Source: a virus. From it: a stretch of DNA of 41,559 nt. A program made the translations under genes and the position numbers. The stretch spans positions 1-41,559 of the IMG/VR virus record IMGVR_UViG_3300045988_027176; one strand, 5' to 3'. The notes beneath the pieces were generated by a model. The model was not told the origin of the DNA. It searched no databases and was given only the letters and a program-made list of their open reading frames with translations. Shown piece after piece: positions 80 to 41,545 of this stretch (within the stretch, counting starts at the first letter, position 1; each line of letters starts with the position of its first letter).

Positions 80-102
80 AGGGGATGCACTATGCATCCC
101 CT
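80..102. terminator. Perfect 10-bp stem hairpin at the convergent ends of int and the ArdC-like gene
   Basis: aggggatgca-cta-tgcatcccct. The loop is the stop codon of the 90-938 ORF. There is no long U run on either side, so terminator function is only suggested. Confidence 0.4.
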
Positions 103-938
103 AAAATATAGTTTACTGCTTTTTCAGCTTTGCCAGCGGCAGAGATTATCATAGTTGGATCATTTTTTAGAACTTGCATCCAACCTTGAAGATATGCAGC
201 GCTATTTCGGAAAGAAGCTCTTGTTTCTATCCCTACATAGGCAACAAGGTTTGCCGCGCCGAGCTCCGCTACAAGCTCTTCTTTGCTGTAGTCATCGCTT
301 CCAAAAGCCGCTGCGCCAGAACCGCAAGCAAAGCGATCAAGCCTTGTTTTATGCCCGGTAGAATGTGCCATCTCGTGAAAGGCTGTCGAGTAATACAATG
401 CATCATTAGGGAATTGTTCAATCTTCGGAATGACGATTGCATCACGTGACGGGCTGTAAAACGCTTCGTCGGACAGATTATCGCGGATCAGCTTTACGCC
501 CTCGCGCTCAACATAAGCGGTAATGATGTCCTCGGCCTCCGATACCGGGTTTGCGTGCTTTTGGAGTTCGGGAGGATATTTGATTTTGATATTCTCGCAA
601 TCTTCGACATTGAACACGGTGTAGTATCTAAGCATCGGTACGATCTTTTCTGTTGGCTCTCCGCTCTCGTCCGTCAAGCTCGTTGTCACCTGTTTCCAGA
701 AAACAACCGGGCGGCCTTTAGAGCCTTTCTTCAAATGGCCCTTTTCAGCTTTGATCTGATTCATCGTCACCCACTCGCCCGCGCAACCAAGAATTAACTG
801 GTTAAGCAGGCTGTACGGCTTGCCGGTGGTGTGGGAAACAGCACCAACGCCCGTCCAAGGCTTGTCCCACGGGATGACGCCCTTTTCCATTTCCTCAATC
901 AGGCGGTCAGTTATCAACGCGCAAATTTTCTTGTTCAT
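90..938 (-). CDS. ardC: ArdC-like antirestriction protein (N-terminal ssDNA-binding DUF1738-type domain plus C-terminal zincin metalloprotease)
   Basis: 282 aa. The N-terminus (LIEEMEKGVIPWDKPW...) is typical of the ArdC N domain. There is a C-terminal HExxH motif (FHEMAHSTGH). ATGA overlap with the upstream small ORF. Confidence 0.7.
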   Translation of the reverse strand: MNKKICALITDRLIEEMEKGVIPWDKPWTGVGAVSHTTGKPYSLLNQLILGCAGEWVTMNQIKAEKGHLKKGSKGRPVVFWKQVTTSLTDESGEPTEKIVPMLRYYTVFNVEDCENIKIKYPPELQKHANPVSEAEDIITAYVEREGVKLIRDNLSDEAFYSPSRDAIVIPKIEQFPNDALYYSTAFHEMAHSTGHKTRLDRFACGSGAAAFGSDDYSKEELVAELGAANLVAYVGIETRASFRNSAAYLQGWMQVLKNDPTMIISAAGKAEKAVNYILGDA

Positions 939-3916: not shown

Positions 3917-4141
3917 TTATTTAAGCCCTAATCCTCGGGCGATTTCGTCCACAGTCGTTCCGCGTTCCTTCGCCATGTTCTCCGCCATCTGCCGGAGCTG
4001 GTCGGGCGTCTTTCCCTGTACCATCTGCAAAGCCTGTTGCGCCCGCGGATTGCGTCCAGCCATCTGCTGCATTAGCGTCATCGGGTTTCCGCCGGTACGG
4101 GCGAGGTTAATTAAATTGAAAATCGGATTATTCGTCATCAT
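3917..4141 (-). CDS. Hypothetical protein, 74 aa
   Basis: ORF overlapping the upstream gene by 14 nt. Q/M-rich helical sequence. No family recognised. Confidence 0.5.
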   Translation of the reverse strand: MMTNNPIFNLINLARTGGNPMTLMQQMAGRNPRAQQALQMVQGKTPDQLRQMAENMAKERGTTVDEIARGLGLK

Positions 4142-4481
4142 CTTCTACCCTCCGGCGCTTTTTGGCGGTCAGCTCCGCCCGTAGCGCGTCAAGGTCGGCT
4201 TTTGTGGCGTACTCTACCGCTGGGGCTTGTTCAGGCGTGAACAGTTTGAAATCAAAGAAATCCGATGCACCCGTCTGCTGGTTGAAGCGTTTCAGGTAGA
4301 TCATTCCGTGCCCAATGTCCGGCATGACGACACCGAGAGAAAAGTAGTCCGTGCTTGTGGCAATAGCCTCTTCGCGGCTCGTGACCGGCTTGCAGACGTA
4401 TCCGGGAGCAATCTGCTGCATGGGCTGCTGTCTCTGATATCCGCCGTAAAACTGCTGTGGCTGCTGGTAGTAGTTTTCCAT
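4128..4481 (-). CDS. Hypothetical protein with a Q/Y-rich N-terminus, 117 aa
   Basis: RBS gaaaggacgtgaagca. N-terminus MENYYQQPQQFYGGYQRQQPMQQ. First gene after the terminator at 4514-4547. Confidence 0.55.
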   Translation of the reverse strand: MENYYQQPQQFYGGYQRQQPMQQIAPGYVCKPVTSREEAIATSTDYFSLGVVMPDIGHGMIYLKRFNQQTGASDFFDFKLFTPEQAPAVEYATKADLDALRAELTAKKRRRVEDDDE

Positions 4482-4513
4482 TGCTTCACGTCCTTTCTGC
4501 CCCCATTGTCACA

Positions 4514-4547
4514 TAAAAAAAGAGGGCTAACCCATCGGTTAGCCCTC
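4514..4547 (-). terminator. Rho-independent terminator at the end of the late/lysis operon
   Basis: 10-bp perfect stem gagggctaac/gttagccctc. On the minus strand it is followed by UUUUUUUAU. Confidence 0.75.
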
Positions 4548-4567
4548 AATAATCCATCAATAATCCA

Positions 4568-4831
4568 TCATTCGATTGCAGCGGCGATCTTGTCCTTAAT
4601 CGCCCGTATACGGCGCTCAACTTTCTCTGTGCCGTACAGTTCCGTGTCCGTCTGCATGGCGAAGGAGATTTGCAAAACGCTCATGCCCTTTGCCCGCAGA
4701 CGGAAGATTTTTAATTCCTCATCGGTAAAGCCGCAGTCCCGCTCAAACTGTTCGCGCAGCTCTCGCGGGAATTGCAGCTTATTCTTTGTCCCCGGCGTTG
4801 TTAAACTCCGTAGGATGCTCTCTGTCGTCAT
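4568..4831 (-). CDS. Small sigma-70 region-4/LuxR-like HTH protein, 87 aa
   Basis: The segment FTDEELKIFRLRAKGMSVLQISFAMQ... resembles a region-4-type HTH. Last gene before the terminator. Confidence 0.4.
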   Translation of the reverse strand: MTTESILRSLTTPGTKNKLQFPRELREQFERDCGFTDEELKIFRLRAKGMSVLQISFAMQTDTELYGTEKVERRIRAIKDKIAAAIE

Positions 4832-4968
4832 CGGCTACACTCTCCATATATGCGTTAAAAAGTGTCTCTGAGAGGCTTTCAGACGCCTCCACGCCATTGA
4901 TGCGGCAGAACGTTTTTACGGATTCTTTCATCTTTCCGTAGTGTCGGTTTACAAAGTTTTTGTTGCCG

Positions 4969-5289
4969 TCAGGCGGCTTTGAACTTATCGTTCATTTCCT
5001 TAACGGCGGCTTCGAGAAGCACCTTAAGCTCGTCCTCCGTGGTTTTGATGCCCTTCTGTTCGAGTATGGAGGCGGCAACGGCCATGGCGCGGGACAGTTT
5101 CTCGTCGCCGTGGATATCCTTATACACCTGTTCAATGTACGCAACGGTAGTTGCCGCTACCTTGCGCTTGGTATCGGTGTTGACATACTTCTCGTACAGC
5201 TTCGCGGCGTAAGACGCAGCAATGCCGCAGACGGCGAGGATGATGTACTTGATGATTTCCATGCAGTAGGTAGTGATAATCTCGTTCAT
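4969..5289 (-). CDS. Holin (LL-H-like family)
   Basis: 106 aa. N-terminal TM helix (IIKYIILAVCGIAASYAA) then an amphipathic helical tail with the ...IEQVYKD...KL..A pattern typical of LL-H holins. It lies one gene (5302-5688) downstream of the endolysin. Confidence 0.6.
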   Translation of the reverse strand: MNEIITTYCMEIIKYIILAVCGIAASYAAKLYEKYVNTDTKRKVAATTVAYIEQVYKDIHGDEKLSRAMAVAASILEQKGIKTTEDELKVLLEAAVKEMNDKFKAA

Positions 5290-5301
5290 TGCAAATTCTC
5301 C

Positions 5302-5688
5302 TTACTTCAAAAAATCGTTTTTCTTTAGATGTCCCGCGTAGACGCTGTTAAGATGCTGAATGGTGTTTGCGGCGCGGTTGTTTTCGTATAGCGGGTGGCC
5401 GGAGCAATAGTCCTCGTATCGGTCAACGTCCCGAAGAACGTCAGCCCAATGCTCGGCGGTGTGAAGAACACCCTGCCGCACCTCATCGCCGAAGCGGAGG
5501 ATGCGGCTTCGCGCCTCGTCAGCACGACACGCGGCGTCGTCCTCAATGTGCTTTACGAGCTTACCGTCTAAGGCGTCCAAACGCTTCACAATCTCGCTTT
5601 TGTTCTTACGGTTGGCGAGGATCAGCGAGAAGATGCCCGCAACGGCAGCCCCGCCGCATGCGGTGATGATTGCCTTTATGATTTCCAT
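5302..5688 (-). CDS. Membrane-anchored lysis-cassette protein (possible second holin or lysis regulator)
   Basis: 128 aa. A single N-terminal TM (AIITACGGAAVAGIFSLILA) plus a soluble domain. Sits between the endolysin and the holin. Confidence 0.4.
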   Translation of the reverse strand: MEIIKAIITACGGAAVAGIFSLILANRKNKSEIVKRLDALDGKLVKHIEDDAACRADEARSRILRFGDEVRQGVLHTAEHWADVLRDVDRYEDYCSGHPLYENNRAANTIQHLNSVYAGHLKKNDFLK

Positions 5689-5697
5689 TTATTTCTC

Positions 5698-6453
5698 CTA
5701 CTTTACTCCGAGTATCCGGTTCACTTCGCCCTGCACGAGATCGTAAAACCACGCGCCGAGCTTCTGCTTTCGCTCCTCACCGTTGCCCCACTTTCCGTCG
5801 AGCACCTCCTGCGCCATTGCCGGAATGCTCACAGTCATTCCTTCCTTTTCGTCTGGGCAGGGCTCTGCTCCGCCCGCCGCTCCATCGTCGAAATAGGACA
5901 GCGGGACATGCATGATATCAAGGTCGAGCGGCTCCCCGCGGTACTGGTGAAAGATGCATTTCCCAGTCAGATCGGGATAATGCTCCCCGTCGTTCCAGCC
6001 CCACGCCGCGATCCATTTGTCGTAGCCGGTATTCCCGATATGCTCGTCAAACCAGCTCTGCGACGCATATACGCCCGTTCTGTTCCCTGCCTCTTCCATA
6101 GCCGCGCAGAACGTTTTGCACATTGCGGTTATGGTCTCGTCCGTGGGGAAACCGTTTTTCACCTTATACCCGTCCGCGTCCTCCATATCAAACCACACGC
6201 CGAGACGGGGCTTTCGGCCATTGAGGAAGCGCAGACACCGCTCCGCCTCCAATTTAGCCGTCTGCACATTCAGCGCATAGCTGTACCAGTAGATGCCCCA
6301 CGGGATACCGAGCGCATCGCATTTGGCAATGTTGCGCTCCGCCCATTTGTCGGCATTTCGGATGCCGTAGCCGCCGCGGATGATGACAAAGCCATCTTTG
6401 TAAGGGGTGAAGTCAAAATCGCCCTGATGCTCGGAAACGTCAATACCGTTCAT
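5698..6453 (-). CDS. Endolysin: GH25 muramidase with C-terminal Cpl-7-like (CW_7) wall-binding motif
   Basis: MNGIDVSEHQG...GIPWGIYWYSY...WFDMED is the GH25 signature. The C-terminus AQEVLDGKWGNGEERKQKLG...VQGEVNRILG matches the CW_7 pattern. I take the start at 6453 (ATGA overlap with the upstream stop) rather than the track start at 6534. Confidence 0.9.
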   Translation of the reverse strand: MNGIDVSEHQGDFDFTPYKDGFVIIRGGYGIRNADKWAERNIAKCDALGIPWGIYWYSYALNVQTAKLEAERCLRFLNGRKPRLGVWFDMEDADGYKVKNGFPTDETITAMCKTFCAAMEEAGNRTGVYASQSWFDEHIGNTGYDKWIAAWGWNDGEHYPDLTGKCIFHQYRGEPLDLDIMHVPLSYFDDGAAGGAEPCPDEKEGMTVSIPAMAQEVLDGKWGNGEERKQKLGAWFYDLVQGEVNRILGVK

Positions 6454-18091: not shown

Positions 18092-18165
18092 TGGCAGCGC
18101 GAGTTGGGATTGAACCAACATCGACAGGATCAAAGCCTGTTGTGTTACCTTTGCACCATCGCGCT
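18092..18165 (-). tRNA. tRNA-Gln (anticodon UUG), 74 nt with encoded CCA
   Basis: Folded by hand. Acceptor AGCGCGA/TCGCGCT. Weak D arm GTG(C)/CAC. Anticodon stem ACAGG/CCTGT with loop CTTTGAT. Variable loop CGAT. T arm GTTGG-TTCAATC-CCAAC. Discriminator G, then CCA. Confidence 0.8.
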
Positions 18166-18333
18166 ATAAATGCATGGCCGCTGTTGAGCAGTAGCGACGC
18201 GGTTTTTGTATCCCCCTCCGCAGGGGCAAGACAGGGGGAAAGGAAGGAAGCCCTGCCAAAGCAAGACCGTTATTTCTGTACCCGCCACAAGGTCAGGCGG
18301 CGCTCTCTGTTATGCTTTTGAAAAATAGGCATA

Positions 18334-18362
18334 GAAAAAGCACCGTGTGTTTACACGATGCT
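18334..18362 (-). terminator. Rho-independent terminator after the MuF-GNAT gene and small ORF
   Basis: On the minus strand: AGCAUCGUGU-aaac-ACACGGUGCU (one G-U pair) followed by UUUUUC. The stop codon of the 54-aa ORF lies in the stem-loop. Confidence 0.6.
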
Positions 18363-18515
18363 TTTGAACATATCAAATTCTTCGTAAGTCAGTTCCGTGA
18401 ATTCTTTCCCTGTCTCTCTGCAATATTCTCGAATCCGCTTGAAATTATAGCCCGGCGAGCTGTCGGGAAACGGATCAGTCAGAGCGCCGTAATTGTCAAG
18501 AGGATTCTCCGCCAT
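18351..18515 (-). CDS. Hypothetical small protein (54 aa) overlapping the end of the MuF-GNAT gene
   Basis: My translation: MAENPLDNYGALTDPFPDSSPGYNFKRIREYCRETGKEFTELTYEEFDMFKSIV. Its ATG lies 20 nt inside the upstream gene. No clear Shine-Dalgarno, so expression would depend on coupling. Confidence 0.35.
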   Translation of the reverse strand: MAENPLDNYGALTDPFPDSSPGYNFKRIREYCRETGKEFTELTYEEFDMFKSIV

Positions 18516-20271
18516 AGTATCTGTCATATAGTTTTTTCGCGCTCCTTTCTTCGATGGCCATAATTCTAAGTCTTGGGTTAATGAGCGTTGCGCCGAGCGA
18601 TTCTTGATAATGCTTAATCAAATCCGACTTGGCAGTAAAGTATACATATCCGTCAAAACCTTGTTTGAAGCTCTCCCGAACAGCCTCTGCAAACAAATGG
18701 CCGCCTACACCAGAATACTCCTTACTTAGAAATGCAGGGTTGTGCGGGTTGTTAAACGGAGCAGCTTCGACTATATCAATCTTTACGGCATAATTGTTTG
18801 GATCCGGCTTTAAGGCAATTAAACCCTGTATGCGGTTATCTCCATTCGCTTTAATTCCGCGAATTGTATACCCGTTCTTACGCGGAATCGTCCAGTCAAA
18901 CTCCCAGTCCTTAAAATCGCGTTTTGTTGGAATAACCTCAACGACGGTGGTGTTGACAAATTGTCCGTCATTCATTCTTTTAAGGCAAGGTGTAAGCTCG
19001 TCAACCTCGATTTTAATTATACCATTTTCAGGCTGTTTTGCAATATTTTTTGCAGCTTTCTGCGCTTCCCGTGCTTCTTTCGGCCCGAACTCCGCGATGT
19101 TCCCACGCTCGTATTGTGGCCGCAGTCCTGCCGCCTTACTGAAAGCCTCGTATTCCTCGTTTAGACGACGATACCGTACAGACTTGGTCGTATACTCCTC
19201 ATCGTCTCCGCGTCCTTTAGCAGCTATTAGCTCACGTTTAACTTTACGCAGCGATGCTTCAACCTGCCTCTGCTTTTGTGTCGCTTCGTAAAAGGTGTAT
19301 TGCTTGCCCTCAAACTCAAAAGGCGGCGGGTCGATGTTCTCCAATTCCTCATCGGTGTATGTCCGCTCGGAAACACCCTCGATCCAGATATGGTACATAT
19401 GGCGGCAGTTTGCGCCGCACAAGCCGTCCACCTCGTCAAGGCCGCAGACCTCATAGATGGACGGGTAAATATCGCCGGTACGTACGGAATAAACGCGCCC
19501 CTGCCATTTCTTGTGGCTCGCCCATGGCGTTTTGCCCTCTCCGTCACGCGCTCCGCGGTGCGCCGTAACCTCCCTGTATGGCGTGTCAAGCAACGTCGCC
19601 GTCTGCTCGGTGTACTGCCGGGAAAGCTGGGTAACGCCAGTCATAACGGCTCTGCGGGCAGCAACGTCAACGCGGTTATGCCAGCCGGATTCATAGTCAA
19701 CGTACTGCAAGCCGCTGTCCGTCAGCATCTTCGTTGCGTCACGGATCGCCACGTTATAGCTCTGCCCGCTCTCAACGCGCATCAAGGCATCGTCAAGCAC
19801 GCGCTGGTACATACGGCCTATATCATCGACCTTTACCGTGCCGTCCGGCGCTCGGTACGCAAAGCCCATGCTTCGGGTAATGTTCGTCAGCTCTCCGAGC
19901 GTCTGCATCTCAATGGCGTTGATTTCCTGCATGAACAGGTCGGCATTGAAGTTGTTTTCACCGAGAATGAGGTTGTCGTCGATCAGCGTATCAAAATACT
20001 GCTGATTGCGTTGAACGGCCTTGTTCCATACGGTGTCAAACTCGCTCTGTGTGAGCTTTAGGGTCTTTCGGATATACTCGTTGATTTTTTTGTAATCGTA
20101 TCCCCTCCGCTGCAAAGACCGTATATGCTCTATCGCCGTCTCCGTCATTTCCCCGGTCATGGCAACACGGGAGCATATGTCCTCAAGGATTTGCTCTTCT
20201 AAGCGCTGATATAGCCGCATAAGCGGCAGGGGCAGGGAGTACATGAACTCCGGCGTGATCGGGTATTTCAT
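18496..20271 (-). CDS. Head morphogenesis protein (Mu F / SPP1 gp7 family) fused to a C-terminal GNAT-like acetyltransferase domain
   Basis: 591 aa. MuF signature ...TAHRGARDG...HKKWQGRVYSV...GANCRHMYH. The C-terminal ~170 aa (IQGLIALKP...VKIDIVEAAP...YSGVGGHLFAEAVRESFKQGFDGYVYFTAKSDLIKHYQESLGA) have GNAT-like beta4-alpha3 and beta5-alpha4 patterns, including a G-x-G-G CoA-loop-like motif. Confidence 0.75.
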   Translation of the reverse strand: MKYPITPEFMYSLPLPLMRLYQRLEEQILEDICSRVAMTGEMTETAIEHIRSLQRRGYDYKKINEYIRKTLKLTQSEFDTVWNKAVQRNQQYFDTLIDDNLILGENNFNADLFMQEINAIEMQTLGELTNITRSMGFAYRAPDGTVKVDDIGRMYQRVLDDALMRVESGQSYNVAIRDATKMLTDSGLQYVDYESGWHNRVDVAARRAVMTGVTQLSRQYTEQTATLLDTPYREVTAHRGARDGEGKTPWASHKKWQGRVYSVRTGDIYPSIYEVCGLDEVDGLCGANCRHMYHIWIEGVSERTYTDEELENIDPPPFEFEGKQYTFYEATQKQRQVEASLRKVKRELIAAKGRGDDEEYTTKSVRYRRLNEEYEAFSKAAGLRPQYERGNIAEFGPKEAREAQKAAKNIAKQPENGIIKIEVDELTPCLKRMNDGQFVNTTVVEVIPTKRDFKDWEFDWTIPRKNGYTIRGIKANGDNRIQGLIALKPDPNNYAVKIDIVEAAPFNNPHNPAFLSKEYSGVGGHLFAEAVRESFKQGFDGYVYFTAKSDLIKHYQESLGATLINPRLRIMAIEERSAKKLYDRYYGGESS

Positions 20272-21686
20272 TCATTTTCGCCCGATATAAGGCTCTCCAT
20301 CTTCGGCAGGGCGGCTTTTGCCGTCGCCTCGTCCTCGTTCATATAACGCATTCTGAACTCATACGGCTGCATGATCCCCATCTTCACCATACGCGCATCT
20401 CGGTTAAACTCCGATTCCTTATCCTCAATGATGGAATCGTCGAAATCAACCGTGATCTCAACGTCCTCATTCAGCCCGGCATTCATATAAGCATTGCCCA
20501 TTCGGAGCAGGACGCGGCACAGCTCAATGAGAGCGCTTTCAAGGATGATCTCGTGCTTTTTGATAGTGCGGAACATCTCGGAGTTTTCGCTTATAATCTG
20601 CGTCGCTGTGGAGACGTTGCCGTTGTCGTATTTGTAATGGTTCTCGCCAAAGCCGCACTTGCTCGACAGAAGATTTAGCATGTCCTGAATGCCGGCGTTG
20701 TGTTCCGCCGTGCGGAGGTTCATGTTGATCTCTTTGATGATATCGCCGTCCTTCCCGTCGGCGGGAAGAACATAAAAAACAACGTCGCTCGTATCGAATA
20801 GCGGCTCGCCCGTGTGGAAATTCTTTGTAGCCTGCGGTTTGAGCATGACGCGCTTCTTGCCAAGCTGAAACTCATTCACATAGCTGTCGTATGTCAGGTC
20901 AACGCCCTTTAGTTGATCTATTGCGTTCGCAAACACCGAAATGCCCATCGGCAGGGTTGCATCAACGTTGTTGACGATGTTCAGCCGGTCAATGACGAAC
21001 ATCCGCTGCGTGAACGGCGTATGCACGACCGGAGCTACATTTTCAAACCCCGGAACATCGGCAAGGTTCACCTCCGACAGGCTCCCCTTTGTGTCACGAT
21101 ACAAAAGGTTTTCGATGTCGTATGTCCCCTTTTCCGTTCGCTTATGTATGCAGATGTAAAGGTAAGAATCTTTCTTTATTGCCTTGTGCGATCCGAACGC
21201 GCATTCGGTTACGATGCCGTTCTCCCATGTAAGGGGAAGGATAAGGTCAGCCGGTACATAATCGATGCGGATTTCCCCGCCGCTGCCGTTCACCTTGCCC
21301 GTCTGCTCATCGACAGACGCATTAACGACCGTCGGAACATACGCGACAGTGCCGCGAGCTGCCTTGATCTCCTGCATCTCGTTCGATTTGACGGTGAAGT
21401 TGTTCCGCTCAAAAACGGAATCGATGAAGTCCTGCTCTGGCTTCCCCTCAAGCGTTATCTTGCACTTTTCGTTCAGCAAAAGGTTCGCCCAGTCCTCGCA
21501 GACCTTTTTCGCCATGCCGAGAGAATACAGGCGACAGGGGACATATTTCATGCCGTTCCAGATGCGGTAACGGTGGAACTGCTTCACATACCCGTCATAC
21601 CAGCTCTTCCAGTTCTGAATGTAAGTGTAAAACTCTTCCGGCACGGTGGTATATCCACGTGCCCGTAAAACCTCGTAAATGTTCAT
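20268..21686 (-). CDS. Portal protein (SPP1 gp6-like)
   Basis: 472 aa, between terL and the MuF gene. ATGA overlap with the downstream gene. Confidence 0.85.
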   Translation of the reverse strand: MNIYEVLRARGYTTVPEEFYTYIQNWKSWYDGYVKQFHRYRIWNGMKYVPCRLYSLGMAKKVCEDWANLLLNEKCKITLEGKPEQDFIDSVFERNNFTVKSNEMQEIKAARGTVAYVPTVVNASVDEQTGKVNGSGGEIRIDYVPADLILPLTWENGIVTECAFGSHKAIKKDSYLYICIHKRTEKGTYDIENLLYRDTKGSLSEVNLADVPGFENVAPVVHTPFTQRMFVIDRLNIVNNVDATLPMGISVFANAIDQLKGVDLTYDSYVNEFQLGKKRVMLKPQATKNFHTGEPLFDTSDVVFYVLPADGKDGDIIKEINMNLRTAEHNAGIQDMLNLLSSKCGFGENHYKYDNGNVSTATQIISENSEMFRTIKKHEIILESALIELCRVLLRMGNAYMNAGLNEDVEITVDFDDSIIEDKESEFNRDARMVKMGIMQPYEFRMRYMNEDEATAKAALPKMESLISGENE

Positions 21687-22925
21687 TTATGCCTTCACTC
21701 CGTACAATCTGAATACAGGCTCCATCCCATACCGGATAGCGTCTATTGCATGGTTGTTCTTGTCTGGGTATCCGCTGATAATCTCGCCGTCTTTGTTCCG
21801 TTCGTACTCATAGCCGACGATCTCTTTGTATGCGTTCGGCGTCCTGCGTTTGTCAATAACAATTTTTCGACGCTGTAGCCACTTCATACCATACTCGACA
21901 CTTCCCGGGCCTTTTATGGCGTTTCTTGCATCCAGCCCACTTGCCCGCAAGTCTGCGATGCTTTTAGGCTCCGCGCTGTCACATGTGATCGGGAAATCAT
22001 TATAATGGCGGTCGCGGATCCAGACGGCATTGTCTTCGTTACTCGTCTTATTGACGTAATGCTCATCGATCAGATATAACGTTTCTCTGGCAACATCATA
22101 GTATATGCGGATAAAGCAAAACGGATCAGGATACCAGCCAAAGTCGATGCCTTGATAAATCCTGTCAAACCGCTTTACTTCGTCGTCCGTAATTTCCCGA
22201 AGCTCCAACCGCTCAAATACGTTGCCGCCCGTGCCTACAGGCAGACCAAGGTATTCGTGTTGGTACGCTCTTTCATCGGTCTGTTTAAGGTATTCGGCTT
22301 CGTTTATGAACTCCTCGCCGAGCCAGCTCTTAGGCGCATCAAGGTAGGTGCTTATGTGGCACAGTCGGTTCGGCTTGTCTTCAGCACTATCTATATTCGC
22401 CCAATTATCGCGGCTGATAGGCGGGTTGTAGCTCTCGAAATTCCAGAACTTGTCCCCGCCGCGCATTGTTGACTGCAAAATGGTGCGTATCTCCGCCCTG
22501 CCGGAAAACTGATCTTTTTCCTCAAAGTGAGTAACGGCAATGTACCCGAACGGCACCTTGATAGATTTAATCTTCATTGGGTCGTCTGCGCCACGGAACA
22601 TGATCTTTTGCCCGGTCGGGCGGTAGATGATTTCCATCGGACTGACCTTTGCGTACCATAGCCCGGCCATGCCAAGCTCGGAAATCGCCCACATGTACTG
22701 GTTAAACACACTGTCTCGAAGGGTGTTTGCAACCTTACGGAGCACCAGCGCGTGAGTATTTGGATTGGCGATTAACAACTGTGGTACAAGCAGGGATACG
22801 GTTGACGATTTCAGGCTCCCTCGACCGCCGCGAATGTCGTAATGCGTATGACCGTGCCGCATAACGTCTTTCGCAAGGTCATAAAATACAGGGGCAAGCA
22901 TTTCTGACATTTTTATATGTCCCAT
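21687..22925 (-). CDS. terL: Terminase large subunit (PBSX/Terminase_3-like)
   Basis: 412 aa. Walker A-like GGRGSLKSS. C-terminal nuclease motifs (DSAEPKSIADL, HAIDAIRY). Confidence 0.9.
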   Translation of the reverse strand: MGHIKMSEMLAPVFYDLAKDVMRHGHTHYDIRGGRGSLKSSTVSLLVPQLLIANPNTHALVLRKVANTLRDSVFNQYMWAISELGMAGLWYAKVSPMEIIYRPTGQKIMFRGADDPMKIKSIKVPFGYIAVTHFEEKDQFSGRAEIRTILQSTMRGGDKFWNFESYNPPISRDNWANIDSAEDKPNRLCHISTYLDAPKSWLGEEFINEAEYLKQTDERAYQHEYLGLPVGTGGNVFERLELREITDDEVKRFDRIYQGIDFGWYPDPFCFIRIYYDVARETLYLIDEHYVNKTSNEDNAVWIRDRHYNDFPITCDSAEPKSIADLRASGLDARNAIKGPGSVEYGMKWLQRRKIVIDKRRTPNAYKEIVGYEYERNKDGEIISGYPDKNNHAIDAIRYGMEPVFRLYGVKA

Positions 22926-23299
22926 TCAATGATCGCCCCTCTATCAACTTCCGGATCAGGATAGTCTTTCTGTCCGAGAACTTGCTTGCCAAGCCATATC
23001 GCCATTGTTGCATTAGTTTCCGATAGCTTCATCTGGTTACGGCGCAAGCTCACTTTGCCTCTGGCCTGTCCTCTTTTTTTGCAGTCTAAGAATGTTTCTC
23101 GGTTATTCTTGTTATGCAGCGTTTCTACGGTAGTGCCAAGCTCCCCGGCCATTTCTTCATCTGTGCACATGTATTTGGACAGCATCTCGACCAGTTGCTT
23201 ACCCTCGACACTCAAAACAAGGCTCGGTCGGCCTTTTCCGTTGGGCTGCTTATTCAGATATTTGTTAAACGCTCCAAGCTGTTCAGCAGTCTTCGCCAT
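22913..23299 (-). CDS. terS: Terminase small subunit
   Basis: 128 aa. HTH-like region (TDEEMAGELGTTVETLHNK). Overlaps terL by 13 nt. Confidence 0.75.
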   Translation of the reverse strand: MAKTAEQLGAFNKYLNKQPNGKGRPSLVLSVEGKQLVEMLSKYMCTDEEMAGELGTTVETLHNKNNRETFLDCKKRGQARGKVSLRRNQMKLSETNATMAIWLGKQVLGQKDYPDPEVDRGAIIEWDI

Positions 23300-24392
23300 A
23301 TAAGCACCTCGTAGACAACGCGAGAACGCTCTCTATGGTTTCGGACATGTCATAATATCTATAATCACCCAAACGGCCACAAACGATTAGACCGTCCTTT
23401 TCCGCTCTCAATCGGTATTTCTGGTACAGGGCTTCACTCTCTGCGTTATTGACAGAATAAAAAGGTTCTTTCCCTCGTTCCCATGCGTCAGGATATTCGA
23501 TTGTCAGTACTGTTTTCGGGCTTTCTGTGTCAAAAACGAAGTGCTTATGCTCTATAACCCTAGTATGGGGGATTCTGCTCTCGGTGTAATTTACTACAGC
23601 CACACCTTGATAGTTGTCTATATCAACCGTCATCTGGTCAAAACGCAGGCTTCGCCACGGGAGTTCGCCATACTCATATCTGTAAAGCTCATCGAGTGCG
23701 CCAGTATAAACGATCTTCTTTGCCTTATACTTTTCCTTCGCTTCTTCAAAGGACGTATTTAAGGCTACGTCTGTACCGTTTAACAGTGATTCAATGAGTT
23801 TATTATACCCCTCGATAGGGATGCCCTGATATTTCGCATTATAATAGTTATTGTCCGCTGTATACCGAACTGGGATCCGCCGCATTATATCCGGCGGAAG
23901 TTCGGAACAAGACTTGCCCCATTGCTTTTCGGTGTACCCTCGGATAAACATCTTATAGATGTCTTCTCCGACAAGCGACAGCGCGTGTTCTTCTAGATTC
24001 TTCGCTTCGCGATCAAGCACAAGTCTCTGGCGGTTGATCTCCGCTTTCGCCTGAAAAGGGAAATTCACACCCCACAACTGCCGGAATGTGTTCATGTTAA
24101 ACGGGAGGTTGTAGCACCGCCCTGCGTAGCAGGCAAGGGGGCTGTTAATGAAATTATTGAAATGAACGAACTGATTGACGAATTTCCATACCTCGTCATT
24201 GTTCGTGCGGAAAATGTGCGCTCCGTATTTATGAACTGCTATCCCCTCAACATTTTCTTGGTAGCAGTTTCCGCCGATATGGTCGCGCCGATCCACGGCA
24301 ATACAGGACTTCCCAGCCTTTGTCGCCATATACGCAAAAACAGAGCCTGCAAGCCCTGTTCCAACTATTAAGTAATCGTAGTTTTTTTCCAT
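23283..24392 (-). CDS. glf: UDP-galactopyranose mutase
   Basis: Start MEKNYDYLIVGTGLAGS (FAD GxGxxG). Collinear by eye with bacterial Glf (HKYGAHIF, NLPFNMNTF, LVGEDIY..FIRGYTEKQWG, RIPVRYT.DNNYY...YQGIP, IEHKHF, GRLGDYRYYDM). The 35-aa N-terminal extension in the ORF track is rejected. Confidence 0.93.
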   Translation of the reverse strand: MEKNYDYLIVGTGLAGSVFAYMATKAGKSCIAVDRRDHIGGNCYQENVEGIAVHKYGAHIFRTNNDEVWKFVNQFVHFNNFINSPLACYAGRCYNLPFNMNTFRQLWGVNFPFQAKAEINRQRLVLDREAKNLEEHALSLVGEDIYKMFIRGYTEKQWGKSCSELPPDIMRRIPVRYTADNNYYNAKYQGIPIEGYNKLIESLLNGTDVALNTSFEEAKEKYKAKKIVYTGALDELYRYEYGELPWRSLRFDQMTVDIDNYQGVAVVNYTESRIPHTRVIEHKHFVFDTESPKTVLTIEYPDAWERGKEPFYSVNNAESEALYQKYRLRAEKDGLIVCGRLGDYRYYDMSETIESVLALSTRCLYGEDC

Positions 24393-25249
24393 TTTTCGTT
24401 CACCAGCTTCGGGCGGCAGTTGTTCCAACTTATTTTGTGATGGATTCGGAAATTTATTATGCCCTGTTTTGCGATCTTCACGAACGACGGGCAGCACATA
24501 ACACTGTAAAAGCTCTTCCGGTACGTACCGTTGTCCTGATATATGTCCGTCATTCCACCACGCATGTGCTGTGTCGGCGGCGTCTGTACCTGCAAGTACA
24601 TAACAGAATACATCAGCAGCCCCCGGCTTGCTTCGTCTATCGTCGTGGTAATATCGTCATTCATGCGCATACGGAATTTGACTTTTTTATCAGCGCGCAT
24701 CAAGAACGATCCCATAGTTTTCGGGTTAAGCCCCATGAAATACTTTTTTCCACGGATCCCGCCGAGGTATTCGCTCGACAGCGCAAAGGACAGCCATGCA
24801 ATGTCCGTCTTATCGATGTACCGCACAAGGTAATAGAAAAGCGTGTCAAGGTCCCGGCAAGCCTTTGTAACAAGCCTGTCATCCTCTACATATCTGAAAT
24901 CGATCCTCGTAAAATCATCGTCGAGCTGCAAATGATATTTATAGCCACGCTCTTCGGCAAGGTCTTGTATCTTGTTTCTTGCGAACACTCCAACGCGGCG
25001 GTCATTGTCCGTGTCGCCGGTATCCGTCTCATCCGCAACAGCCTTTTTATCAAACTGAATGACATGTTCGCCGAACTTAGAGAAGTATTGATCGGCTTGG
25101 TCGTCCTCATTGTCGATCACAACGTACCAGTCTCCGGTATAGCCGCTGTCTTTCAGCATCTTTACTGTTTTTATCTCGTCAGCTCTGCCGTGGCTTAGAA
25201 TAAAGACAGCGAAAGATTCGCGGTATTCACTCCTCGTCAATGCCCTCAC
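24368..25249 (-). CDS. Putative GT-A fold glycosyltransferase (DxD type), family not recognised
   Basis: 293 aa, GTG start. N-terminal beta-strand motif FAVFILSHGRA, then YVVIDNEDD, and a DxD-like motif HLQLDDDF. Overlaps the ParB-like gene by 23 nt and glf by 25 nt. Confidence 0.5.
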   Translation of the reverse strand: MRALTRSEYRESFAVFILSHGRADEIKTVKMLKDSGYTGDWYVVIDNEDDQADQYFSKFGEHVIQFDKKAVADETDTGDTDNDRRVGVFARNKIQDLAEERGYKYHLQLDDDFTRIDFRYVEDDRLVTKACRDLDTLFYYLVRYIDKTDIAWLSFALSSEYLGGIRGKKYFMGLNPKTMGSFLMRADKKVKFRMRMNDDITTTIDEASRGLLMYSVMYLQVQTPPTQHMRGGMTDIYQDNGTYRKSFYSVMCCPSFVKIAKQGIINFRIHHKISWNNCRPKLVNEKWKKTTIT

Positions 25250-39689: not shown

Positions 39690-40250
39690 GTGTCCGCGCT
39701 CACAGACCTACAACCTTACTTAGACGAGTATCCAGCCAAACTTCGCAAAGCGAAAAATGCCAGCGGCTTCACCCTGCAAGAGTTGTCAGACCTTTCAGGC
39801 GTTCCTTATAACAACGTATGCGACACAAATGCAGGGCGGGTCAAGCACCCGCTCCTTTTTTATGCCGCTGCCACTTGCAAGGTATTGAATCTATCGCTGA
39901 ATGAGCTTGTCGGTCTGGATGAACAGCCGGACACACAGCATGTCCATGATCTGGAATTAGAGAACGTGCGGTTATCCGGCGAAGTAAAGCATCTGCAAGA
40001 AATGAACGCAGGGCTGAGAAAGCAGGGGGAAACCCACACAAGGACAATTTATATGCTTATAGGCGTATGCAGTATTCTTTTGTGCGCCGTTGTATGGTAC
40101 GTCATATTTGACATCAAGGTAGAGACCGCCGGTATTTTCCGCTCGGCTGGGACAAGCATTTTTGCGGGCGTCCTCGCCCTGATACTGAACGCCTCCGTCG
40201 CAACCATCATTTACGCCTTCAAAAGCATTTACAAGGGGAAAAAGAAATGA
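39690..40250 (+). CDS. Membrane-anchored XRE-family HTH protein
   Basis: I place the start at GTG 39690 (RBS ggagatggag). HTH FTLQELSDLSGVPYNNVCDTNAG, a coiled-coil-like segment, and two C-terminal TM helices (IYMLIGVCSILLCAVVWYVIF and IFAGVLALILNASVATIIYAF). ATGA overlap with the integrase start. Confidence 0.6.
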   Translation: MSALTDLQPYLDEYPAKLRKAKNASGFTLQELSDLSGVPYNNVCDTNAGRVKHPLLFYAAATCKVLNLSLNELVGLDEQPDTQHVHDLELENVRLSGEVKHLQEMNAGLRKQGETHTRTIYMLIGVCSILLCAVVWYVIFDIKVETAGIFRSAGTSIFAGVLALILNASVATIIYAFKSIYKGKKK

Positions 40251-41545
40251 GAGTTGCACTTTATGTCCGCGTCTCCACGGAAGAACAAGCCGTTCACGGC
40301 CTTTCCGTCGATGACCAGAAGGACAGCCTGAAAAGATGGGCGGAGGAAAACAAGCACAAGGTCGTTGATTATTACGTCGATGCCGGGGTAAGCGGCAGGA
40401 AAAGCGTGTCAAAGCGCCCTGAATTGCAGCGGCTTCTGTCCGACGTGGAAGCGGGGAAAATCGATCTCGTAGCGTTCACAAAGCTCGACCGGTGGTTCCG
40501 AAACATCGGGGAATTTTATAAGGCGCAGGAAGTCCTCGACGCGCACGGCGTTGTCTGGCAAGCGACATACGAGGATTATGAGACCGCCACAGCCGCCGGA
40601 CGGTTAAAGGTCAATATAATGCTGTCCGTCGCGCAGGACGAGGCAGACAGAACGTCAGAGCGTGTTAAACGGATCATGCAGCACAAGCGGGAGCTTGGCC
40701 TTTGCCCCGCGGGTAAAACGCCCATCGGGTTAAAGGCCGTCGAGAGCCGCCTTTGCATCGATGAGGAAACGGCGCACATTGCTAGGCGAATGTTTGAAGA
40801 TTACATCGCAACGGGAAGCGTTAACCACGTCAAAAAGATGCTCGTTTCCGAATTTGGAATAATGCGAGCGAATCATCATATAAAAGGCGCATTGAGCAAC
40901 GAGAGATATATCGGCCTTAACAACGGAATAAAAGTCTGCGACGCGCTGATCCCGCCGGAGGATTTTGCCCTTGTACAACGGATGCTGACGGCAAGAAGCA
41001 TTCGCAACAACGGATCAAAGCATACTTGGCTTTTCTCCGGCCTTGTCTGGTGCGCCGAATGCGGCCATCGTCTTGTGACGCATTCAACACGGCAACGTGG
41101 GACAGACTACTTCTATTACCGCTGCAAAAACTATGAAATTGGCATCTGCCGCCACAAAAAGAGAATCAACGAGGCGACGCTTGAAAAATATCTGCTTGCC
41201 AAGCTGCCAATCGAGGTACAGGCGCACAATGCAAAGCTCAAAGCAGGAAAAACAAAGCCGCCGGTTGATACGGCGGCGATCAAGCGGAAAATGGACAAAC
41301 TGACAGACCTTTACCTCGCTGATCTCATAAGCCGCGAGAAATACGAAATAGAATACACAGCATTAAAAGAAAAACTGAACGTACCGCCAGAGCCGAAGCC
41401 TATCAACGAAGAACTTGTCATGTCTCTATTGGACGCATATGACAAACTTCCGCCACGTGGAAAAAAGGAAGTGTGGAATCGCTTCATTCGCCGGATTGTA
41501 GTTTCAGAAAACGGCGACATCTTTTTTGAACTTGTTTGGCTATAA
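40247..41545 (+). CDS. int: Large serine recombinase (integrase)
   Basis: 432 aa. The N-terminal resolvase domain opens MRVALYVRVSTEEQ (catalytic Ser). Then a recombinase domain, a zinc ribbon CAECGH...YYRCKNYEIGICRH, and a C-terminal coiled coil. Confidence 0.93.
   Translation: MRVALYVRVSTEEQAVHGLSVDDQKDSLKRWAEENKHKVVDYYVDAGVSGRKSVSKRPELQRLLSDVEAGKIDLVAFTKLDRWFRNIGEFYKAQEVLDAHGVVWQATYEDYETATAAGRLKVNIMLSVAQDEADRTSERVKRIMQHKRELGLCPAGKTPIGLKAVESRLCIDEETAHIARRMFEDYIATGSVNHVKKMLVSEFGIMRANHHIKGALSNERYIGLNNGIKVCDALIPPEDFALVQRMLTARSIRNNGSKHTWLFSGLVWCAECGHRLVTHSTRQRGTDYFYYRCKNYEIGICRHKKRINEATLEKYLLAKLPIEVQAHNAKLKAGKTKPPVDTAAIKRKMDKLTDLYLADLISREKYEIEYTALKEKLNVPPEPKPINEELVMSLLDAYDKLPPRGKKEVWNRFIRRIVVSENGDIFFELVWL

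Follow-up and report, generated by a model that had tools for sequence, protein, structure and literature searches.

The virus record IMGVR_UViG_3300045988_027176, a stretch of 41,559 nucleotides (nt) analysed in full and called the window throughout, encodes a head protein of 591 amino acids (aa) which belongs to the MuF superfamily. Its C-terminal domain and the product of the small open reading frame (ORF) that follows probably constitute a new cargo class of MuF polymorphic toxins, namely a virion-delivered effector acting as an acyl-coenzyme A (CoA)-dependent transferase and its cognate inhibitor, a reading to which we give a probability of roughly 0.6. The 3' end of the muf gene and the small ORF would form one mobile two-gene cassette, coding for a divergent transferase of the GNAT fold and for an acidic, partly disordered protein of about 60 aa that would bind and inhibit the enzyme. 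The elements concerned are the following:

18496 to 20271, minus strand: muf-type gene, an ORF of 591 aa
19057 to 20271, minus strand: head-morphogenesis module of the MuF superfamily (MuF2 / Phage_min_cap2), residues 1-405, assigned through PF06152 and phrog_581
18499 to 19020, minus strand: divergent GNAT-fold domain, residues 418-591, assigned through an AlphaFold2 (AF2) model, Foldseek, weak profile matches and the hidden Markov model (HMM) of its family (E 1.7e-72)
18351 to 18527, minus strand: acidic protein of 58 aa, the partner and a candidate for an immunity protein or inhibitor; 32-nt overlap with the MuF stop, AAGGAG 14 nt upstream
18364 to 19054, no strand assigned: cassette of C-terminal domain and small ORF, the unit replaced in sibling phages

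The N-terminal module is readily recognised, with residues 6-377 matching PF06152 (Phage_min_cap2, E 3e-75) and phrog_581 ('minor head protein', E 1e-84). An earlier note, made from the sequence of the window, had labelled the protein 'MuF/gp7'. The label is right at the level of the superfamily, in which Jamet et al. 2017 (PMC5576092) place PF06152 as the family 'MuF2', although the module is not PF04233 itself. The exact 591-aa protein is present in public records (DAV40272.1 and DAZ60303.1) as a 'minor capsid protein', and its partner is labelled 'hypothetical protein' there. These records and the size of the domain family (1851 clusters at 50% identity, see below) exclude a chance ORF.

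Residues ~418-591 have no match in Pfam, PHROGs, NCBIfam or PADLOC, and the domain is thus not recognised by curated GNAT sequence models (Pfam, NCBIfam); a search of PDB sequences with the domain as a single sequence gave chance matches only and was set aside. The fold was modelled by AF2 from an alignment of 46 homologues (A1), with a pLDDT of 88.1, a pTM of 0.83 and disorder confined to the 17-residue linker. Comparison of the model with the PDB by Foldseek gave 32 matches at E<=1e-3, and every one among the matches listed is a GNAT acyltransferase. The best structural neighbours are the tRNA-acetylating toxin TacT3 (7ak9, E 1e-5, TM 0.55-0.60), the 'bacterial toxin' 7byy and AtaT (6gtq), followed by GCN5 and PCAF; KacT and GmvT are also among the matches listed. 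In BFVD, the non-self matches were again viral GNATs. The mixed alpha/beta fold of the GNATs is thus seen both in the model (pLDDT 88) and in its PDB neighbours.

Conservation, read across A1 and a second alignment of 88 sequences (A2), supports the same assignment. The GNAT motif Q/R-x-x-G-x-G/A is present as E-Y-S-G-V-G-G, in which two glycines are invariant or conserved to at least 90% and the first position is not conserved as Q/R. Three sites stand out on the minus strand:

18688 to 18717, minus strand: P-loop YSGVGGHLFA (GNAT motif A, pyrophosphate-binding) and start of alpha3; G523, H525, L526 and A528 invariant
18607 to 18609, minus strand: Tyr555, within HYQESLGA of GNAT motif B and a candidate for the general acid; without exception in A1, conserved to at least 90% in A2
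18982 to 19002, minus strand: DELTPCL, a family-specific N-terminal motif in a beta-hairpin according to the secondary structure of the model; D424, T427, C429 and L430 near-invariant in A1 and A2

The invariant or nearly invariant positions include generic GNAT residues (G521, G523, G524, H525, L526, A528 and Y555) and residues specific to this family (D424, T427, C429, L430, W456, W460, Q482-G483, P505 and N507). Tyr555 presumably occupies the position of Y137 in TacT2, whose Y137F mutant has been used as a catalytically dead form (PMC5959882), and the domain may well be catalytic. We take it for a new and very divergent family with the fold and the cofactor site of a GNAT. The earlier note had described the domain as GNAT-like and placed it at 18496-19020, accurately in view of the family HMM span of 18505 to 19020. 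The sequences it had quoted fall on elements of the AF2 model: AVKIDIVEAAP on strand beta4, YSGVGGHLFAEAV on the P-loop and helix alpha3, and GYVYFTAKSDLIKHYQESLGA on beta5 and alpha4. Its description agrees with the structure search, which finds the GNAT fold together with an intact P-loop and motif-B tyrosine.

The position of the domain is one at which closely related phages carry different cargos. We searched with residues 1-405 and compared the ~60 closest proteins, which are 94-99% identical and fall into these length classes:

591/592 aa: C-terminus is the GNAT-fold domain
605 aa: C-terminus unassigned, no Pfam match
570-574 aa: C-terminus is Ntox50 (PF15542)
563/564 aa: C-terminus unassigned, no Pfam match; one of the classes P0264, P0268 and P0296/P0313
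548/551 aa: C-terminus unassigned, no Pfam match
396-410 aa: short MuF, no C-terminal extension

All these proteins are near-identical through …AEFGPKEAREAxKA and completely divergent after it, the short forms ending 2-3 residues later. The DNA of the Ntox50-carrying sibling (L084) is 94% identical to the window down to position 19085 and again from 18363. Similarity extends down to 19055 in a sibling of the 563 class (L085) and to 19047 in one of the 548 class (L183), resuming at 18363 in both, and in a phage with a short MuF (L086) it extends down to 19044 and resumes at 18319. From these breakpoints the exchanged unit runs from about 18364 to 19054 and comprises the domain and the small ORF, in a background where the siblings are 90-95% identical outside the cassette. 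At the place of the small ORF, siblings with other cargos have ORFs of 65, 82 and 52 aa that are unrelated to it, and those with short MuFs have none. With at least five C-termini other than the GNAT domain, among them Ntox50 and three unknown domains, or with nothing at all on N-termini that are 95-99% identical, the extension is not a constant part of the MuF protein. The breakpoints also bear out the capture of a module that the earlier note had proposed from the AT-richer DNA of the domain, and so does composition: the GC content of the cassette is 0.43, against 0.545 in the N-terminal part of the MuF gene and 0.52 in the window, its GC content at third codon positions (GC3) is 0.42 against 0.67, and it lies within the lowest 3% of windows of equal size. 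The three unassigned cargo classes on this MuF backbone (P0264, P0268 and P0296/P0313, with 605, 563/564 and 548/551 aa) have no Pfam match, and the two examined, the 563 class (L085) and the 548 class (L183), each have a small downstream ORF of their own; all three are candidates for new toxin/immunity pairs.

The small ORF downstream of the domain, to which the earlier note had drawn attention, encodes 58 aa when read from its first ATG and 54 aa when the second is used. An ORF of 53-82 aa starting between -56 and +30 nt of the stop of the domain gene is found in 76 of 77 IMG/VR loci, often with an overlap of 1-4 nt, and these start/stop overlaps suggest translational coupling of the two genes. 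The downstream ORFs are homologous to each other (consensus …lDeAAekAGGYv.P…YDYRkI..YCKEKGI.P.DLT..EL..F), the copies of the window and of Fusobacterium phage phiPaco matching with a pairwise E of 3e-10. Scanning phage and bacterial loci with an HMM placed the partner, in 151 of 156 loci (about 97%), directly downstream of the domain and on its strand, and a six-frame search of the same loci (~1 Mb) gave a single match elsewhere, immediately upstream of the domain. The reverse look-up led back to the domain: in the two clusters examined, the partner lies downstream of MuF2 proteins ending in it. The opposite gene order occurs in the abundant standalone protein P0056, and in the loci L002 (5778 to 5984) and L099 (2822 to 2966) we observed the partner gene upstream of the domain. 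The partner appears to be a new protein family of roughly 60 aa, the near-obligate neighbour of the domain. The window copy has an isoelectric point (pI) of 4.3, and its AF2 model, of low confidence (pLDDT 67), shows a disordered N-terminal half and a small beta-alpha-alpha-beta arrangement in the C-terminal half. Searches of Pfam, PHROGs, NCBIfam and PADLOC with the small ORF gave nothing useful; pentatricopeptide matches of the partner profile in the PDB were rejected as summed matches to a 14-residue motif.

The domain is far more widespread than the phages of this group. A profile search of 1.84 billion representatives found 1851 clusters (50% identity) at E<=1e-3, with 337 of them at E<=1e-30. 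In every long carrier protein the domain stands at the extreme C-terminus. The scaffolds of 88 long carriers are PF04233 (Mu F, 39 cases), PF06152 (29) and PF25310 (VG15, 7), and more rarely a portal domain, a SNF2/DEAD helicase and an HTH domain (one each). Among the remaining members there are many standalone proteins of 165-190 aa, and the pair occurs by itself in Bacillota genomes: 68 of 78 copies in IMG/VR are fused, and 61 of 80 loci in bacterial assemblies, sampled with one genome per species, are standalone. The main hosts are Oscillospiraceae, Lachnospiraceae, Ruminococcus and Streptococcus suis, with further members in Leptotrichia, Fibrobacter, Synergistaceae and Phascolarctobacterium. 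Few members are found in the databases of cultured phages and plasmids, that is, phiPaco, one satellite, one unannotated faecal phage and a few Paenibacillus and Treponema plasmids. In the phage collection searched, phiPaco is the only cultured phage with a MuF-GNAT fusion and a partner. Its minor head protein is 49% identical to the window protein over residues 408-588 only, the N-terminus being unalignable, and since phiPaco is in culture and carries the fusion, experiments are possible:

phiPaco (L001, OR492274.1), 3969 to 5716: MuF-GNAT fusion and 58-aa partner

Single members have other architectures. In P0121 (719 aa), a MuF1 module is followed by a middle part resembling an HExxH metallopeptidase (HHEIGH) and then by the GNAT-like domain; in P0127 (653 aa), a portal protein (PF04860) is joined to the domain by a Gly/Ser linker. 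P0018 (271 aa) is a recombinant whose first ~125 residues are 87% identical to the domain of the window and are followed by a Swt1-like HEPN domain. The cut comes after beta5, so the catalytic tyrosine is lost, and the protein looks like the scar of a cargo displacement.

The genomic surroundings of the standalone pairs look typical of toxin-antitoxin (TA) and defence modules. Such pairs were found between a DNA methyltransferase, SIR2-HerA and a ResIII restriction enzyme, next to HicAB, ToxN and VbhA-Fic, and next to GmrSD, a type IIG restriction-modification enzyme and a SocA/Panacea protein; one standalone copy lies in the early region of a phage and adjoins an AcrVA2-like gene. The partner also exists without the enzyme. 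Cluster-mates of the 58-aa protein include gene calls of 177-193 aa that map to a bacterial chromosomal locus flanked by rplS, signal peptidase (lepB), ylqF and rnhB and present in at least 18 contigs:

L181/L182, 2958 to 3582: orphan partner remnant of ~580 bp, a decayed MuF cassette

This remnant holds pieces of the MuF 3' end that are 86-87% identical to the window, and it still has the linker and some 45 codons from the start of the domain. The GNAT core (18580 to 18921 in the window), P-loop and Tyr555 included, has been lost through a deletion of 343 nt. The small ORF has stayed intact, at 97.7% identity, where the remnants on either side have 86%. A partner that neutralises the enzyme and brings a benefit by itself would be expected to leave such a trace, with the enzyme lost and the partner kept.

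The cassette seems to bring along its own expression signal. A consensus scan detected a promoter-like element exactly at its 5' edge, within the codons of the linker:

19016 to 19043, minus strand: promoter-like element TTGCAA-16-TGgTATAAT in linker codons (IAKQPENGII), 10/12 match to the consensus, extended -10

The -10 box is encoded by the G-I-I codons of …QPENGII…, and in loci L007-L174 we observed that the linker peptide …(Q)PENGII… (SGII or NDII elsewhere) is the translated extended -10 box (AATGGTATAAT). Using a strict pattern (TTGnnn-N16-18-TATAAT between -80 and +30 nt of the domain start), we found the element in 81 of 157 loci (49/83 fused, 27/65 standalone) and in 33 of 8054 control windows of 110 nt from the same loci (0.4%), a more than 100-fold enrichment at the domain start. 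Its spacing to the domain is similar in fused and standalone genes, the chromosomal orphan retains it, and in L183 the same element precedes an unrelated cargo. In the window, no in-frame start codon exists ahead of M433 and transcripts from the linker would therefore yield the partner only, whose ORF has its own AAGGAG. As far as can be judged from sequence, the element could function as a promoter, and the fused form may go back to a standalone operon that was captured in frame, promoter and leader included.

These data can be assembled into a scenario in which the enzyme, fused in frame to MuF2, would be built into the capsid beside the portal and leave it with the DNA, a route modelled on SPP1 gp7, for which it is known, and on the MuF polymorphic toxins, for which it is proposed. 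One MuF toxin has been found in the virions of StB12 according to the literature, and we infer packaging and ejection for the present domain as well. Once inside a new host cell, the enzyme would transfer an acyl group to some cytoplasmic target, most likely an amine in the translation machinery (aminoacyl-tRNA, for example, which is what TacT and AtaT modify), and the outcome would be a transient arrest of growth or translation. Enzymatic activity, toxicity, the target and inhibition by the partner are all put forward here as predictions. Aminoacyl-tRNA itself is a first and doubtful guess, made because of the structural neighbours and of the alternation with an RNase cargo. A low overall pI could have been used as an argument against a tRNA substrate, and we dropped it because TacT2 itself has a pI of 6.6-7.1 (PMC5959882). 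In turn, the partner would shield the producing cell and lysogens; expressed from the promoter in the linker, it could be made in lysogens without the late operon, which would render immunity independent of late transcription.

On every point that can be checked computationally, the cassette has the properties of a MuF polymorphic toxin (Jamet et al. 2017, PMC5576092; Apk2 toxins, PMC12226406): a MuF-superfamily N-terminus encoded immediately downstream of the portal gene, a C-terminal extension that varies at a fixed junction among close homologues with near-identical N-termini, a small ORF directly downstream that changes together with the toxin domain, and a temperate phage of gut Bacillota as the carrier. 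MuF toxins have been reported from temperate phages only (PMC5576092), and the window comes from a temperate siphovirus of gut Oscillospiraceae, temperate because it carries a large serine recombinase. The differences lie in the cargo, as the known ones are nucleases, metallopeptidases, ADP-ribosyltransferases and RelA-like domains and include no GNAT, whereas the fold here is that of a GNAT; in the new partner family; and in a cassette that is mostly standalone in bacterial genomes and has an embedded promoter-like element. Neither GNAT nor acetyl is mentioned in Jamet 2017 (PMC5576092) or Zhang 2012, and the combination of MuF and GNAT was not found in the literature searched, the coverage of which is incomplete. 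The earlier note did not know this combination as a described MuF cargo, and it appears indeed to be new, being absent from Jamet 2017, Zhang 2012 and Iyer 2017.

The second family to be compared is that of the GNAT-RHH type II toxins (TacAT, AtaRT, KacAT, ItaRT and GmvAT), which provide the closest structures and share the P-loop, the catalytic-type tyrosine, the two-gene logic of toxin and inhibitor, and the location in TA and defence islands. The cassette differs from them by another N-terminal substrate-side region, by a loop insertion, and by a domain that can be fused to virion proteins. There is no detectable sequence similarity, the partner (~60 aa, usually downstream) is without RHH/DUF1778, whereas the antitoxin of TacAT/AtaRT is an RHH/DUF1778 protein encoded upstream, and gene order is mostly reversed. 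For these reasons we do not count the cassette as a member of the TacAT/AtaRT family. GNATs have also been described in polyvalent proteins, as effectors proposed to arrive with invading DNA (Iyer et al. 2017, PMC5512222), and fusions to MuF and portal proteins have been noted for other effector domains, PBECR and 2H (PMC5512222). The GNAT families of that study are RimI-like, one in gammaproteobacterial prophages beside ART domains and the other in conjugative elements; it describes no MuF-GNAT architecture and no small partner, and the family of the window would, judged by these descriptions, differ from them. Finally, Alt of phage T4 (PMC5512222) is an enzyme that modifies proteins and travels in the head to be injected together with the DNA, as proposed here, and differs by its ADP-ribosyltransferase fold and chemistry and by having neither a MuF scaffold nor an inhibitor partner.

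Several observations weigh against a GNAT toxin with its inhibitor. None of the Pfam GNAT models matches a single one of the 46 members searched, even with a cutoff of E<=5, and the family profile found only two acetyltransferases in the PDB, 3h4q and 3pp9, with weak E-values (0.18 and 0.36); their alignments are in register, E-Y-S-G-V-G falling on the R-x-x-G-x-G pyrophosphate loop and the HYQESLGA tyrosine on the FYEK tyrosine. TM-scores to known GNATs are low, ~0.5-0.6 (about 0.55), the N-terminal third is atypical, with a beta-hairpin in place of the usual alpha1-alpha2, and 14 residues are inserted ahead of the P-loop. TacT/AtaT matches precede GCN5 by only ~10-fold in E-value, so that a tRNA target is weakly supported. 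On the side of the partner, Foldseek with the low-confidence model gave nothing at E<1, the 31 members show no consistent Pfam match and no RHH or DUF1778, and one protein, P0258 (245 aa), is a natural fusion of the GNAT-like domain with the partner, which is odd for a toxin-inhibitor pair. In addition, what MuF toxins do biologically is so far a matter of hypothesis in published work.

The divergence past Pfam detection and the atypical N-terminal region could also be read as signs of a non-catalytic, GNAT-derived pseudoenzyme serving capsid assembly or ligand sensing, the small ORF then being an ordinary head-assembly accessory. This is very improbable, given P-loop glycines and a motif-B tyrosine that do not vary within a family of over 1800 clusters, a domain that is dispensable in siblings with short MuFs, and standalone pairs far from any head genes. 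The least probable of the explanations considered is an enzyme acting on the phage itself, acylating virion proteins or hypermodified DNA, or else a Fem/LFTR-like transferase dependent on aminoacyl-tRNA. The GNAT fold superfamily does include tRNA-dependent transferases, and genes for GLF and a TET-associated glycosyltransferase are nearby. However, a sibling with the same GLF-containing backbone carries Ntox50, so the domain is no essential part of DNA modification, the P-loop with its many glycines speaks for CoA as the donor, and standalone pairs are devoid of any phage context.

An anti-defence role, in which the injected acetyltransferase would inactivate an immune protein or a messenger of the host, in the way that AcrVA5, an anti-CRISPR of the GNAT type, acts on Cas12a, and the small protein would be a chaperone, a packaging adaptor or a temporal inhibitor, is unlikely in our opinion but has more to recommend it. 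Delivery by the capsid is ideal for pre-emptive action, the window also contains an ArdC-N/zincin anti-restriction gene and DNA-hypermodification genes, and there is the standalone copy beside the AcrVA2-like gene of a phage early region. The orphan does not separate an anti-defence enzyme from a growth toxin, since its inhibitor would benefit the host in both cases. What makes us favour a toxin is the TA-island context of the standalone pairs, which are the majority of the genomic copies and lie in bacteria and not in phages, and the presence in siblings, at this very site, of Ntox50, an RNase domain recognised in polymorphic toxins. Moreover, a near-obligate and tightly coupled inhibitor is typical of self-harmful enzymes.

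A broader view, which we advance tentatively and at somewhat less than even odds, is that the virion-delivered toxin is one aspect of a widespread and unrecognised toxin/inhibitor family with three lives. The family would exist as a self-promoted, two-gene TA-like module in bacterial defence islands; in-frame capture, by which promoter and leader become translated as the linker (…QPENGII…), would turn it into an acyltransferase delivered by the capsid on MuF, VG15 or portal scaffolds; and the domesticated orphan inhibitor gene in host chromosomes would neutralise the injected enzyme. If this is true, the family is the first case of a polymorphic toxin system with an acyltransferase as its cargo, and of a GNAT toxin delivered by a virion. 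In the founding survey of MuF proteins, two thirds of the C-terminal extensions had no known domain. One large class of such extensions, with at least 1851 clusters and common in human and animal gut Clostridia, would now have an enzyme fold and a testable chemistry, and with it comes a new candidate inhibitor family of roughly 60 aa. The cassette joins two fields that have been studied separately, GNAT toxin-antitoxin systems and phage-delivered polymorphic toxins, and the orphan inhibitor and the promoter within the coding sequence offer handles on the role of MuF toxins in infection and lysogeny.

The genes on the minus strand around the cassette are ordered from the large terminase through the portal gene, the muf gene, the 58-aa ORF and a tRNA-Gln(UUG) to the scaffold and major capsid protein genes. 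Features of the window outside the cassette are the following:

21687 to 22925, minus strand: large terminase, at the head of this gene order
20268 to 21686, minus strand: SPP1-type portal gene (PF05133, E 7e-20), which overlaps the start of the muf gene
18092 to 18165, minus strand: tRNA-Gln(UUG), between the cassette and the scaffold gene
23283 to 25249, minus strand: UDP-galactopyranose mutase (GLF, 6e-71) and, beside it, a TET-associated glycosyltransferase (PF20691, 5e-35), both immediately before the terminase genes
90 to 938, minus strand: ArdC-like anti-restriction protein of 282 aa, with an ArdC N-terminal domain (PF08401, 3e-24) and an MPTase-PolyVal zincin domain (PF18818, 1e-34)
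40247 to 41545, plus strand: large serine recombinase (Resolvase and Zn_ribbon_recom), from family matches

The tRNA-Gln was considered as a feature of this particular cargo and dropped, as it is kept in siblings with other cargos and is therefore not cargo-specific. The association of GLF with the TET-associated glycosyltransferase suggests glycosyl hypermodification of the phage DNA, and the 282-aa ArdC-N/zincin protein is of a kind seen in polyvalent proteins.

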